This document shows positions 24,896-57,943 of a stretch of DNA of 64,000 bases, piece by piece (positions within the stretch are counted from its first letter, which is position 1; each line of letters opens with the position of its first letter). This DNA comes from Chloroflexota bacterium. Its GTDB lineage: Bacteria; Chloroflexota; UBA11872; VXNJ01. Both the position numbers and the translations under genes were made by a program. The notes below the pieces were generated by a model. That model saw only the letters and a list, made by a program, of their open reading frames with translations. It ran no database searches and had not been told where the DNA came from. The stretch covers positions 213,181-277,180 of the forward strand of contig JAPOWW010000004.1 of assembly GCA_026707405.1 (NCBI GenBank). Reading direction: 5' to 3'.

Positions 24896-24968
24896 GCGGG
24901 TATGGTTCAATGGCAGAACGCAACCTTCCCAAGGTTGAAATGCGGGTTCGATTCCCGCTACCCGCTCC
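24896..24968 (+). tRNA. tRNA-Gly (anticodon CCC)
   Basis: Cloverleaf by eye: acceptor GCGGGTA/TACCCGC, D-stem GTTC/GAAC, anticodon stem CAACC/GGTTG with loop TTCCCAA, T-arm GCGGG-TTCGATT-CCCGC, discriminator T then CC. Confidence 0.85.
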
Positions 24969-24993: not shown

Positions 24994-27390
24994 CTATTCG
25001 GCTCTCTTCGGCAATACGAACTGCCTGAGCGATTCGGTTCCCAGCACGAGCAATCTGCCGTCCAGCTCGCTTATCCAAAGCGCCCGAATGTCGGAAAAGA
25101 AGTTGTCGGCGCCGCGATAGATGAACTGGCGCACGAACCGCCCTTCATTGCCGTCGCGCTTGTCGATTTCGACGATGCGGTTGTTGCCGTCGTCGACCAC
25201 GTAAAGGCTCTCCGCGGTGGTATCCGTGTACACGCGGGTGGCTTTGGTGATCGGGCGGTCCAGCCCGCTGATCTGAAACCGCAATTTCTTGCCGCCCCGG
25301 TACCGCTCGATCGTGTTGTCGGACAGGAGCACGAAAATGTCGCCGTCTATAGCCATGTCTATGGCGGTGCTGATGTCGACGTCCTCCGACGGATCGAAGT
25401 AGTCGATAGGGTCGACTTCGTACCCATTGGCGGTCGGCTGGTATTTGTGAATTCGATTGGCGGCGGGGTCCAGGATGTACATGTTGTTGTTGAAGTTGTC
25501 GACCGCGACCGGGAGTTTCCATTGTTCGGTTCCGCTGACCCTTAACAGCTGCGGGGAGCGATCGGGGACGATGCTGTACACGTTGAATTCGCTGTCAATC
25601 ACCAGCAGACTCAACTCGCGCGCGACCATGCCGATGATGTTCGTGACGGCGGCTTGACCGACCTGCTCTCCTTCACGGAGCACGACAGAGCCGCGTTTAG
25701 CCGCGCGATATTCGATCAGCCTCTTATCGACGGCGTCGATTACGTACTGGACGTCCTGTCTAACTTCGAGCTGGGGAACAATCCTTGCTATACCGACCCC
25801 AGTGTCGTTGAACTCATCGATCGTGGCGCTCGTAACGAGGCGATAGACCTGGTTAAGACGGTCTTGCTCGGCCTGTATCTGTGCGAGAAGACGGTTAACT
25901 TCACCTTCGTTGTAGCCCGCGTCGATCGCCTGGTTGGCCGCGTCGATCGCATCCTGCAACCCTGCCAGAGCGGGGACTCTTTCTCTTTCTCGCACTGCCG
26001 CGTCGAAATAGCGTTTCGCCTCGGCGAATGAGTTTGCGGCGCTCCCCAGCGGCGCGGTTTGCTCAGGTTCGGCCCTCGTTTCGACCTGTCTTTCTGACTG
26101 CGGCGTTTGATTCGTTGCGACGCTGGGCGATTCGTCTCTTCGAATCGCCAGTATCAGTAGTACGGCGACGAGGGCTACTACCGAAAAGAGCAGGAGTATC
26201 GAGCCCGTCCCAAAGCGTGACCGCGAGCGGCCTCCGGAGGCCAGTGAATCACGACCGCCGAACAGCGACATGAAGACTCCTCGAACTCCGCCCCTTCCGG
26301 GATCGTCCACATCGGGCCACGGTTTGAGCACGGTATCTCGTTTCGATTCCATTACCTGTCTGTTCAGTTCGTCCAACTCTTCAGGCCCGCCGGCTATCGC
26401 CTGCCGCCGCCGCTCGTAGTCGGTCATGGGCGGACTATCGAATCCCGTCTGTCTGGCATATGGGGATGATTCGGAGGTGTCTTGCGGTCGTGACGCGAAG
26501 ACTCTGACGATGCCTTTCAAGGCCATCACCGGCAGCACAAGGACTAGCAGCAACATGCCTATTACGAATTCGCCGATCTTCGCTGCGGCGCCTTTGGAAG
26601 GACGCCCCGCCGCCGTTGCGCCCGCCTGGGCGGTGCGCCAGTCAGGTTCCAGACCGGCTGCGCGGCCTTCCGGCGCGACCGGCGGCCTGGGCCGCGTAGT
26701 GGTTTGCCGCGGCGGGCGTGCGGCTGGGCGATCGAACGCCTCCGGCACTGCAGCGGATTCCGGCTTCAGGATGAGCACGTCGCAATCGACGGCGCCGCGT
26801 TGCGCGGCCAACGCGGCTATCTGGTACGCGGAGTCTTCGGGCGGGTAGCGGACCAGAAGCCCGCGGATTTCCCTTTCGTGCAGAACACCGGCCACAACCG
26901 AGGAAGTCAGGACGATCAAGTCGCTTTCCGTCAGGTCCGCCCGGAGGATCTCTATTTCCTTGTCAAACGGCAGGCCGTCGTCAGGGGTCGTAATGTCGGT
27001 TCCCGGTTCGGGGCGCGCGTTAAGCCGGTTATCCCGAAAAATGAAGAGCTGCGTCGGTGGAAGCTGGGCTATGAACAAATCCTTGCCGCGTACCACAACG
27101 CCAGTGCTTCCCAGATCGAGCCGCTCTTCGTTGGGACGGGCCGCCGCTGCCGCCGCGCTCGAGCCAGCCCTCATGCATCGCATCAGACTGGATATCGCGC
27201 TACTGGTGTCGCCGGAGTAGTAGGCGCGGACGGCGGCGTCGGCGAAATGCGAGCACAGCCGCTCGTTTCCGCCCTCCAGCACAAGATATAGGTGGCCGGC
27301 CGATCCGCCGACCGGCGGGTCGGCGATTCTTATTCTCGAGCTTGCCAGTCCGGGCTGGCCGTGAAGAAAGCTAGCCTGTGCGAATTCCAA
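24994..27390 (-). CDS. membrane protein: N-terminal cytoplasmic PP2C-like (probably catalytically degenerate) domain, two TM helices, C-terminal NHL-repeat beta-propeller
   Basis: N-terminal region parallels PP2C blocks (LVLEGGNE vs ADGMGG; GSTGVVVRGKDLFIAQLPPTQLFIFRDNRL vs GTTAV...GDSRAYLLRDGEL; LIVLTSSVV vs LLCSDGL) with metal-ligand positions substituted. TM helices FVIGMLLLVLVLPVMAL and ILLLFSVVALVAVLLILAI. C-terminal repeats YVVDDGNNRIVEIDK and MYILDPAANRIHKY are NHL-like. Confidence 0.5.
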   Translation of the reverse strand: MEFAQASFLHGQPGLASSRIRIADPPVGGSAGHLYLVLEGGNERLCSHFADAAVRAYYSGDTSSAISSLMRCMRAGSSAAAAAARPNEERLDLGSTGVVVRGKDLFIAQLPPTQLFIFRDNRLNARPEPGTDITTPDDGLPFDKEIEILRADLTESDLIVLTSSVVAGVLHEREIRGLLVRYPPEDSAYQIAALAAQRGAVDCDVLILKPESAAVPEAFDRPAARPPRQTTTRPRPPVAPEGRAAGLEPDWRTAQAGATAAGRPSKGAAAKIGEFVIGMLLLVLVLPVMALKGIVRVFASRPQDTSESSPYARQTGFDSPPMTDYERRRQAIAGGPEELDELNRQVMESKRDTVLKPWPDVDDPGRGGVRGVFMSLFGGRDSLASGGRSRSRFGTGSILLLFSVVALVAVLLILAIRRDESPSVATNQTPQSERQVETRAEPEQTAPLGSAANSFAEAKRYFDAAVRERERVPALAGLQDAIDAANQAIDAGYNEGEVNRLLAQIQAEQDRLNQVYRLVTSATIDEFNDTGVGIARIVPQLEVRQDVQYVIDAVDKRLIEYRAAKRGSVVLREGEQVGQAAVTNIIGMVARELSLLVIDSEFNVYSIVPDRSPQLLRVSGTEQWKLPVAVDNFNNNMYILDPAANRIHKYQPTANGYEVDPIDYFDPSEDVDISTAIDMAIDGDIFVLLSDNTIERYRGGKKLRFQISGLDRPITKATRVYTDTTAESLYVVDDGNNRIVEIDKRDGNEGRFVRQFIYRGADNFFSDIRALWISELDGRLLVLGTESLRQFVLPKRAE

Positions 27391-27660
27391 GTGTCGACCC
27401 GCAGTCTAGTGATTCGGAATTGCCAAGCCTGGCCCCATAATGGAACCTCGCCTCCCAAGGCTTGGCGAAGTATAGCGCCAGCCTGTTTTGAGGGGCTTCT
27501 GGAAATCTGTCGAAATCATTGACTGTATTTGATATCGTTGCATTACCGCAGTACTTCTGGTGACATTGTTCACTTGTGGCCTTTGGACTCGTTTACGATC
27601 ATATAGGTTGTACACATGTTTCGATGTCGGTCAATAGCGCTGTAAGGTTGTGAGAGTTAA

Positions 27661-27675
27661 AAGGAGGTAGCGATA
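27661..27675 (+). promoter_or_regulatory. Shine-Dalgarno AAGGAGG plus in-frame non-canonical AUA start of infC
   Basis: AAGGAGG at 27661-27667 and ATA at 27673-27675 in the infC frame. Upstream leader 27391-27660 is markedly AT-rich. Confidence 0.55.
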
Positions 27676-28212
27676 GCTAAGGACAGTAGGGAACTTCGAG
27701 TTAACGAGAGGATTCATATTCGGCAGGTCCATCTGATTGACGACAGAAATGTCTCAATGGGAACGGTGCCGACAGACCAGGCTTTGAGAATGGCGCGCGA
27801 ACGGGGGCTCGATCTTGTAGAAGTCTCTCCGACTCAGCGCCCACCCGTAGCAAAGATCCTCGACTACGGGAAATTCAAGTATGAGCAGAATCGGAAGGAC
27901 CGGGAGAACCGAAAGCACCAGAAGGCCGGCGAGGTCAAGGAAGTTCGCTTTCGACCTCTTACAAGCGATCACGACGTGAACTTCAAAGTCCGAACGATGC
28001 AGAAGTTCCTCAAGGCCGGCAACAAGGTCAAGGTCACTGTTCGTATGCGCGGCCGCGAGCGTATACATCCAGAGCTGGCTGCGACCCTTTTGACTAAGGT
28101 TGTCGACAAGCTCAAGCATCTTTCAACCGTAGAGCGTCCTGTTTCGGCGGAACGGTCGGACCAGATAAGCATCATCCTTTCTCCGGTACGCGGCGCTTCG
28201 AGCGGGAAGTAG
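27673..28212 (+). CDS. infC: translation initiation factor IF-3
   Basis: The ORF track starts at ATG 27757 (MGTVPTDQALRMARERGLDLVEV...), but the IF-3 N-domain (KDSRELRVNERIHIRQVHLIDDRN) is encoded in-frame upstream with no canonical start. Frame opens after TAA 27658-27660. ATA at 27673 with a perfect SD is the best start. C-terminal IF-3 domain KEVRFRP...VKVTVRMRGRE is clear. Confidence 0.85.
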   Translation: MAKDSRELRVNERIHIRQVHLIDDRNVSMGTVPTDQALRMARERGLDLVEVSPTQRPPVAKILDYGKFKYEQNRKDRENRKHQKAGEVKEVRFRPLTSDHDVNFKVRTMQKFLKAGNKVKVTVRMRGRERIHPELAATLLTKVVDKLKHLSTVERPVSAERSDQISIILSPVRGASSGK

Positions 28213-28290
28213 ATTTCTCGCGGTGCCGCAATGCCCTGGCGCGTTTTCGCGACCCGCGGAATTGCAGCCTCCCCAATAGGTCCAGGCTAA

Positions 28291-28914
28291 TTGCAGGTCA
28301 ATGTTCGCTGGCACGACGAAGAAGTGCCCCGACCCGGGGGCGGCGGTACTTACGTTCGGCAGGTAGCCTGGATCGTAAGCGAAGATATCGGAGAGGACAG
28401 GGTTCGCTATCTGGCTTACCTGGGCGCGAACCCCCGTGTCACGAAAGACCTGAAACTCGAGTTCGGTGCTCTCTATCCGGAACTTGAGGTCGATTGGGAC
28501 GAGCTTGAAGCGCTGGTCGAAAAGCCCAAAACTCGGGTTCAAGACCTCACGTACGACGAGCTTGCCTTCCGGATGCGATCGATACTCGGCGAACACGAGT
28601 ACGAAATGGACGCCGTTGATACCGAATTCGGCCGCGGATGGCACAGACCGCTAAAGGAGCTGGAAAAGCTGCTCGGCAGCCCATCCGTGATAGCAAGATT
28701 CGAGCGCACTTCCGGATCTGTTTTTCGGTACTTGTGCGAATCGCATCCAGATTATGCGTATGCCGTGCTAAAAGTGAGGCTATTATTAGAGTCGCGAACC
28801 GATGAGCTTAGCGCTCTGGTAAAGGGCGAGGCGAAATTTGGAAAGGGTGGAAAAGCCCGTGAGCGTCGGGACTACTATGTCAAGGCTCTTCAATACCATG
28901 TAGGCGGAGGCTAG
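28291..28914 (+). CDS. hypothetical protein (207 aa), no recognisable domain
   Basis: Coding-like composition. Followed by a clean intrinsic terminator. Start TTG 28291 or GTG 28324. Confidence 0.45.
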   Translation: MQVNVRWHDEEVPRPGGGGTYVRQVAWIVSEDIGEDRVRYLAYLGANPRVTKDLKLEFGALYPELEVDWDELEALVEKPKTRVQDLTYDELAFRMRSILGEHEYEMDAVDTEFGRGWHRPLKELEKLLGSPSVIARFERTSGSVFRYLCESHPDYAYAVLKVRLLLESRTDELSALVKGEAKFGKGGKARERRDYYVKALQYHVGGG

Positions 28915-30867: not shown

Positions 30868-31498
30868 GAAATGAGAAATCCTGTTCACGATACGACCGTG
30901 AGCGGTGATAATAGGGAGACGCTCGACGCCGCTCGGTATGTCACGCGGGTTGCGTTCCAACATTTCTAATCGGGGAGCTTGGCTGGTGGCGGTATCGGCC
31001 GCATAGGCTGTTAACGTCGGCCGCGGGCACCCACCTGGTAGATCCAGGGGACGAATTTCAGTGGCAGCCGGCGGCCGTGGAGCGTCGCCTCGCTATGCTG
31101 AACAGCGTCTGTCTCTCAGCTTCGCGTGGAGACCGTTTCGGAGCGCACCGGGCGCCGGTGCGCTCAACACTTTGATGGGCTCTATGGCTTCGTCCGCGAC
31201 GCGGCGGAAAACCGGACAGATCGGCTCGGCGTATTCATAACCAAACAGTCCTGGTCTGTTGTGGGGACTAACACGTGCCGTTACTTTGTCGTTGCCATTG
31301 GGCTGTCCGGCCCAATACTCAAACAAACGTTCGTAAGACGTAATCGGTGTGATAACGTTCGCAGCGCCGAGTTTCGCGTCGAGAGAAAGCCGGGTAATTC
31401 CTTTCGGCGTTCTCGCGGCGGGCTTCGGAATCAGCTCACCGGCTGCTGACAACCGGCTCGGCAGTCGCTGGCATTGCGCTTCGAGAAGAGATGCCCCA

Positions 31499-55359: not shown

Positions 55360-55433
55360 GGCTGGGGCGGTAGGATTCGAACCTACGAATGCCGGCTCCA
55401 AAGGCCGGTGCCTTACCGCTTGGCGACGCCCCA
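55360..55433 (-). tRNA. tRNA-Gln (anticodon TTG)
   Basis: Reverse complement TGGGGCGTCGCCAAGCGGTAAGGCACCGGCCTTTGGAGCCGGCATTCGTAGGTTCGAATCCTACCGCCCCAGCC. Anticodon stem CCGGC/GCCGG with loop CTTTGGA. Closely resembles E. coli tRNA-Gln. Confidence 0.9.
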
Positions 55434-56176: not shown

Positions 56177-56252
56177 TGGTGCCGAGAGTCGGAATTGAAC
56201 CGACGACACATGGATTTTCAGTCCACTGCTCTACCGACTGAGCTATCTCGGC
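56177..56252 (-). tRNA. tRNA-Phe (anticodon GAA), CCA encoded
   Basis: Reverse complement GCCGAGATAGCTCAGTCGGTAGAGCAGTGGACTGAAAATCCATGTGTCGTCGGTTCAATTCCGACTCTCGGCACCA. Anticodon loop CTGAAAA. Near-identical architecture to E. coli tRNA-Phe. Confidence 0.9.
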
Positions 56253-57867: not shown

Positions 57868-57943
57868 TGGTGGGCGATGCAGGGCTCGAACCTGCGACCT
57901 CTACGGTGTAAACGTAGCGCTCTCCCGGCTGAGCTAATCGCCC
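57868..57943 (-). tRNA. tRNA-Val (anticodon TAC), CCA encoded
   Basis: Reverse complement GGGCGATTAGCTCAGCCGGGAGAGCGCTACGTTTACACCGTAGAGGTCGCAGGTTCGAGCCCTGCATCGCCCACCA. Anticodon stem CTACG/CGTAG with loop TTTACAC. Confidence 0.9.

Follow-up and report, generated by a model that had tools for sequence, protein, structure and literature searches.

[quoted passage not shown] The frame is shut by an in-frame TAA at 27658-27660 (plus strand) and is then open as far as the TAG at 28210-28212, and direct reading finds ATG, GTG and TTG all absent from it between this TAA and the ATG at 27757-27759. Because of this a mechanical list of open reading frames opens infC at 27757 only, which gives a product of 151 amino acids. 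The initial annotation, made from the letters of the window, had proposed instead that infC initiates at a noncanonical AUA codon, and had described both the open frame without ATG, GTG or TTG and a perfect Shine-Dalgarno (SD) sequence before an in-frame ATA. Direct reading bears out each of these elements: AAGGAGG occupies 27661-27667, five nucleotides (TAGCG) precede the ATA at 27673-27675, the TAA lies four codons upstream of the ATA, and the ATG at 27757 is in the same frame. The explanation that we favor, with a probability of roughly 0.92, is that translation starts at AUA 27673 under the direction of the SD sequence, that the coding sequence extends from 27673 to 28212 (179 amino acids and the stop codon), and that the IF-3 so produced would repress its own synthesis in the manner described for E. 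coli. The proposal of an AUA start now finds support in the alignment of protein domains, in the bracketing of the start, in the predicted SD duplex, in related genomes and in a product of 179 amino acids held by NCBI.

The interval in which the start must fall is short, extending from the TAA at 27658 to approximately amino acid 6 and reading AAG GAG GTA GCG ATA GCT AAG GAC AGT AGG; before the conserved domain is reached, at amino acids 6-10, ATA 27673 is the sole codon of the type AUN or NUG. When the 17 nucleotides upstream of each candidate are scored against a generic anti-SD, ACCUCCUUU (the 3' end of this organism's own 16S rRNA lies outside the window), the duplex predicted at ATA 27673 amounts to -13.1 kcal/mol, as compared with -2.5 to -6.4 kcal/mol at the later ATT and CTG candidates and +0.2 kcal/mol, that is no SD at all, at ATG 27757. 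The 64 kb contain the heptamer AAGGAGG 5 times when both strands are counted, and by our own estimate (∼5/128000 multiplied by ∼6 positions) the chance that it occurs at a working spacing from one given codon is ∼2e-4. Ile codons, counted with a crude filter of open reading frames, comprise 247 ATA, 212 ATT and 648 ATC, and the rarity of ATA is not used as an argument here.

Several other weak codons could in principle serve as the start, namely AAG 27679, AAG 27661, ATT at 27712, 27718 or 27736 and CTG 27733. The first of these falls within the same SD window as the ATA, and codon 21 is TTG in two of the related loci introduced below (L083 and L085), where gene callers have chosen it and arrive at products of 159 amino acids. 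However, AAG 27679 is spaced 11 nucleotides from the SD and AAG 27661 is inside it; the second base of AAG is not that of AUG, and AAG is not known to be an established start codon in bacteria. The downstream ATT and CTG codons combine the weak SD pairing noted above with a location inside the conserved domain, and in relatives they are exchanged for synonymous codons (ATT/ATC; CTG/TTG/CTT/CTA), in contrast to codon 1. Initiation at any codon of this group is therefore, by the SD spacing and conservation just described, very unlikely.

Translation from the ATA recovers a complete protein. The product of 179 amino acids matches Pfam IF3_N (PF05198) at amino acids 10-79, covering profile positions 1-70 of 70 with E = 9.7e-29, and IF3_C (PF00707) at amino acids 87-171 with E = 3.8e-26; the score with TIGR00168, the infC equivalog of NCBIfam, is 188 bits (cutoff 60), the match beginning at amino acid 6. 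IF-3 chains in the PDB match over amino acids 5-173 (E = 3e-37), and in the solved structures residue 2 of T. thermophilus IF3 pairs with amino acid 6 while residue 10 of the E. coli protein pairs with amino acid 5. The gene product thus has what is expected of an IF-3, with both IF3_N and IF3_C, a Lys-rich linker and a length of ∼170-180 amino acids, and the two domains are complete only if the frame is read from its 5' end. The segment between the TAA and ATG 27757 encodes AKDSRELRVNERIHIRQVHLIDDRNVS, corresponding to the N-terminal tail and domain of IF3, so that the conserved IF-3 N-domain which the initial annotation had placed upstream of the first ATG is indeed there, and the alignment with orthologues that it had called for has been carried out, with the 28 extra residues aligning both with orthologues and with the solved structures.

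It is against this background that the most conventional alternative has to be judged, in which the start is simply the first canonical codon, ATG 27757, and IF-3 has 151 amino acids. This ATG is the earliest in the frame, and automated gene calling in the closest relative likewise gives a product of 151 amino acids (P0003). A start there would, however, remove the N-terminal tail together with IF3_N profile positions 1-19 of 70, and it would have to proceed with no SD. The two starts also differ in the peptides that they predict, with AKDSRELRVNERIHIR... expected from the ATA and absent from a Met 27757 product.

Related genomes speak to the same issue. Loci L081-L098 are from Chloroflexota metagenome assemblies of independent samples and were found by protein search, the DNA then being fetched; together with the window they provide nine distinct lineages at 60-100% protein identity (60-97% for the relatives). 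The codon aligned with ATA 27673 is ATA in eight of the nine and ATC in the remaining one (L088), and the SD is kept in all relatives as GAGGAGG, AAGGAG, AGGAG or GGAGA, 5-8 nucleotides before the start. By comparison, the sequence 5' of the SD diverges, with insertions and deletions. The distance from the start back to the in-frame stop amounts to 4 codons in the window and in L081/82, which share the position of the TAA, to 7 codons in L083/84 and to anything from 26 to more than 60 in the other relatives; since it varies in this way the upstream frame is not conserved. No canonical start precedes the conserved domain in the window, L081/82 or L083/84.

Downstream of the ATA the situation is very different, as can be appreciated from the synonymous and nonsynonymous changes in codons 2-28 relative to the window, which number 9/0 for L081, 11/4 for L083, 16/3 for L089 and 13/7 for L095, with third positions dominating. 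Synonymous changes predominate in the seven closer lineages; the proportion is reversed (7/14) only in L093, the most distant at 60% identity. This pattern of substitution indicates that the 28 codons upstream of ATG 27757 are under purifying selection. Of the 8 other lineages, just the closest retains ATG at codon 29, the remaining 7 having ATT, ATC, CTG, ATA or CTC in its place. Orthologues starting at Met 27757 would have spoken against the AUA start, as the initial annotation had recognized; the relatives instead keep the SD and ATA or ATC and mostly lose the ATG. We therefore regard ATG 27757, the internal Met codon picked by gene callers restricted to ATG, GTG and TTG, as highly improbable as the true start. 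The comparison of these sequences places the start at ATA 27673 and shows both that this start is conserved and that the protein read from it is intact.

The same loci dispose of the concern that a canonical start has been lost through sequencing error, be it in a misassembled gene or in what would then pass for a pseudogene. Nothing favors an assembly error beyond the missing canonical start, and the SD with ATA or ATC, followed by an intact frame, recurs in the independent assemblies L081/L082, L083/L084, L085/L086/L087, L088, L089, L090-92, L093/94 and L095-98. Sequencing error is therefore excluded, and the probability that we attach to this explanation as a whole is negligible.

The product of 179 amino acids has in fact already been called in public annotation, albeit as annotation and not by experiment, and is in this sense already known. 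NCBI records MCY3800979.1 and MCY3937614.1, members of the 90% cluster to which the nearest relative belongs, are described as 'translation initiation factor IF-3 [Chloroflexota bacterium]', comprise 179 amino acids and begin M-AKDSRELRVNER. Compared at the protein level they are identical to our reading of the window at 178 of 179 positions, the sole difference being Met for Ile at codon 1, and they probably derive from the same organism as the window. Elsewhere in the clade the calls are not uniform. For one gene family there are at least eleven automated product lengths between 131 and 212 amino acids (131, 140, 148, 151, 159, 161, 170, 173, 188, 202 and 212), and a call of 218 occurs among the close relatives as well, an inconsistency that also weakens the weight to be given to the call of 151 amino acids in the closest relative. 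Records for L095-L098 (GCA_030744875.1 and others; P0015), MDP6349832.1 and its relatives, have 173 amino acids counted from a GTG at codon 10 (MNGRIHIRQV), and in these loci the SD and ATA are conserved nine codons before the annotated GTG. With 173-residue records from a GTG standing beside those of 179 residues, the public records of this clade do not agree with one another. The main value of the present analysis lies in correcting this annotation: IF-3 calls in the clade are in part too short and in part over-extended, the short ones losing part of the N-domain, and the product of 179 amino acids that PGAP-style annotation already gives in some records should be extended across the clade.

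In order to place the locus in a wider context we have surveyed 80 infC loci of other species obtained from a scan of genome contigs, all with no more than 52% identity to the window protein and including Dehalococcoidia, Actinomycetota, Bacillota, Alphaproteobacteria, Gemmatimonadota and others. Every in-frame candidate 5' of the conserved domain was ranked by SD pairing, and by this heuristic the best start is ATC in 31 loci, ATA in 29, ATT in 12, CTG in 1 and a canonical codon in 7, so that an AUH codon comes first in 72 of the 80 (∼90%). In 37 of the 80 the stop-bounded frame offers no canonical option at all. A noncanonical start is thus not unusual for infC and is an already documented property of the gene. 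It has been reported as ATT in Listeria (PMC13068326), as ATA in F. johnsoniae, by LC-MS/MS and mutagenesis and against an erroneous genome annotation (PMC7797042), and as AUA behind an extended SD in S. aureus, by ribosome profiling with retapamulin (PMC13009471). One statement in PMC5499595 is shown to be too narrow by the 29 loci of 80 with ATA as best start and by these experimental ATA cases. Having an AUH codon, a suitably spaced SD and phylogenetic conservation of both, the window gene is on sequence grounds to be grouped with the noncanonical AUH-start infC genes, and Chloroflexota joins the phyla whose IF-3 gene keeps such a start, in this case an AUA preceded by a near-perfect SD.

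Each of the well-described cases resembles the present one in part. Closest is S. aureus, where a strong, extended SD likewise directs initiation to AUA, where the offsetting of a weak codon by a strong SD has been remarked upon and where autoregulation is proposed by analogy with E. coli (PMC13009471); it belongs to Bacillota and has the support of ribosome profiling, whereas the start in this Chloroflexota gene is known from comparative evidence only. F. johnsoniae shares the ATA start and the conserved N-terminal residues 5' of a mis-annotated canonical start (PMC7797042), the mis-annotation being of the kind seen in the relatives here, but Bacteroidetes ribosomes operate without SD pairing while the window infC has a near-perfect and conserved SD. 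The E. coli gene, with an AUH start on the IF-3 gene and SD-directed initiation, is the template for the feedback that we propose, although its codon is AUU and that of the window is AUA. The AUU start of E. coli infC underlies IF-3 autoregulation (PMC5499595, citing Butler 1987; Brombach & Pon 1987; Sacerdot 1996; Sussman 1996), and it is in E. coli only that infC autoregulation has been directly shown.

Extending these precedents to the window, the 30S subunit would be positioned at AUA 27673 by the strong AAGGAGG five nucleotides upstream, and initiator tRNA would decode the AUA with a mismatch at the third position, as we infer from established knowledge, to give an IF-3 of 179 amino acids starting with (f)Met; with Ala at position 2, the initiating Met is probably removed. 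IF-3 destabilizes 30S initiation complexes on codons other than AUG, GUG and UUG, so that high levels of the factor would reduce initiation on its own mRNA and low levels would raise it, a negative feedback like that of the AUU-initiated infC of E. coli, and the strong SD would compensate for the weak AUA codon. Both the decoding by fMet-tRNA and the IF-3-dependent repression are put forward by analogy, the autoregulation through AUA being taken from E. coli.

The AUA might alternatively set no more than a low constitutive level of translation, with no IF-3 feedback in this organism. The direct demonstration of feedback in E. coli alone is compatible with this, as is the surprisingly good translation in vitro of mRNAs starting with AUA under most conditions (PMC5499595), and a very strong SD could override discrimination. 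On the other hand, an AUH start in such a large majority of infC loci from many phyla would be difficult to account for without a link to the discriminating activity of IF-3, and noncanonical starts are otherwise very rare among bacterial genes (PMC5499595). We consider the absence of feedback unlikely, though less so than the other alternatives. In view of the in vitro results the strength of IF-3 discrimination may differ between AUA and AUU, and the main uncertainty in our preferred explanation, an SD-directed AUA start with feedback, is a quantitative one, namely the degree to which AUA is disfavored by IF-3 in this organism. The AUH start in Chloroflexota infC is consistent with a very widespread feedback logic and opens no new question.

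The region upstream of infC, 27391-27672, is a divergent intergenic region between a minus-strand gene of 798 amino acids and infC. Its AT-richness, remarked upon in the initial annotation as conspicuous for this genome, is real: the GC fraction is 0.482 as compared with 0.610 for the window, just 0.28% of 282-nucleotide windows are as low, and this lowest-GC stretch is the sole sustained one in the 64 kb for which the 282-nucleotide GC is ≤0.50. The accompanying suggestion of a promoter and leader is plausible. An alignment of the nine lineages (A1) reveals a conserved block, TCGAAATCATTGACTGTATTTGATATCGTTGC, at 27510-27541 (plus strand), which is likely the infC promoter. It contains an extended -10 element, TGaTATCGT, at 27530-27538, a -35-like TCGAAA at 27510-27515, 17 nucleotides upstream, and a conserved TTGAC at 27519-27523. 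Three positions, G27531, A27534 and T27538, are invariant in 9/9 sequences, the first being the G of the TG motif and the others the second and sixth bases of the -10 hexamer TATCGT. Transcription would proceed from this extended -10-like element, with a start implied near 27545 and a leader of ∼128 nucleotides. A stricter scan for the sigma-70 consensus returned 0 sites in 27250-28400, and it is therefore the conservation pattern in A1, and that pattern only, which argues for the promoter.

The leader shows little sign of regulatory structure. The minimum free energy of 27545-27700 is no better than that of shuffled sequences (z = -0.44), RNAalifold applied to the leader of six relatives gives 7 pairs with no covariation, and a riboswitch or attenuator in the infC leader is accordingly unsupported. 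Rfam searches of 27350-27800, both at the gathering threshold and at E ≤ 10, return noise only (SNORD88 and a lncRNA fragment) and no RF00558. Two short upstream reading frames are not conserved: in MFRCRSIAL (27616-27645, in frame with infC) the ATG is changed to ATA in L081, and MSVNSAVRL (27623-27652) is kept in L081 and lost from L083 on. Terminator-like hairpins on the plus strand at 27299-27325 lie inside the coding region of the minus-strand 798-residue gene and are irrelevant to infC. Also conserved in the intergenic region is GAAGTATA (plus strand) at 27469-27474, which on the minus strand reads TATACT, and TATAAT in L090; to judge from this sequence it is likely the -10 element of the divergent gene, ∼80 nucleotides before its start.

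As regards gene order, infC lies in thrS-infC-rpmI-rplT in E. coli, and in Bacillus a regulatory leader, the L20 leader (Rfam RF00558), precedes infC-rpmI-rplT. The window differs from both. Unlike the E. coli gene, infC here has its own putative promoter region in a divergent intergenic stretch and is followed by a gene of ∼207 amino acids and then aspS; an organization of the Bacillus type is not found either, with no match to RF00558 and no rpmI-rplT 3' of infC. The ORF of ∼207 amino acids (28291-28914, plus strand) begins 78 nucleotides 3' of infC, where rpmI-rplT normally sit, and wherever a relative's contig reaches that far, infC is again followed by an ORF of similar size, in most cases with aspS next. 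The layout as a whole, from the 798-residue gene on the minus strand through infC and the ∼207-residue gene to aspS, recurs in most relatives, and judged by gene order infC is outside its usual infC-rpmI-rplT context in this Chloroflexota clade.

Neither neighbor has a recognizable family: the ∼207-residue ORF gives no sequence match in Pfam, NCBIfam or the PDB, and the 798-residue ORF (24994-27390, minus strand), conserved at 756-878 amino acids in relatives, gives none in Pfam or NCBIfam. By eye the latter combines a region rich in Pro and Ala with a hydrophobic segment and with a repeat-like part at the C-terminus. No terminator-like site was found between infC and the ∼207-residue ORF, and cotranscription is therefore possible. 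It is tempting to suppose that the ∼207-residue partner is a translation-associated factor coregulated with IF-3, or that AUA has been selected for a different set-point of the IF-3 feedback, but these are speculations to which we give only a slim chance.

Structural RNA genes are also present in the window. Directly 3' of aspS, positions 30918-31087 (plus strand) match 6S/SsrS RNA (RF00013) with 48.5 bits, the gathering score being 46.4. Four tRNA genes, at 24896-24968 on the plus strand and at 55360-55433, 56177-56252 and 57868-57943 on the minus strand, are those for Gly(CCC), Gln(TTG), Phe(GAA) and Val(TAC), and the tRNA-Gly gene ends 26 nucleotides from the 3' end of the 798-residue gene on the opposite strand.
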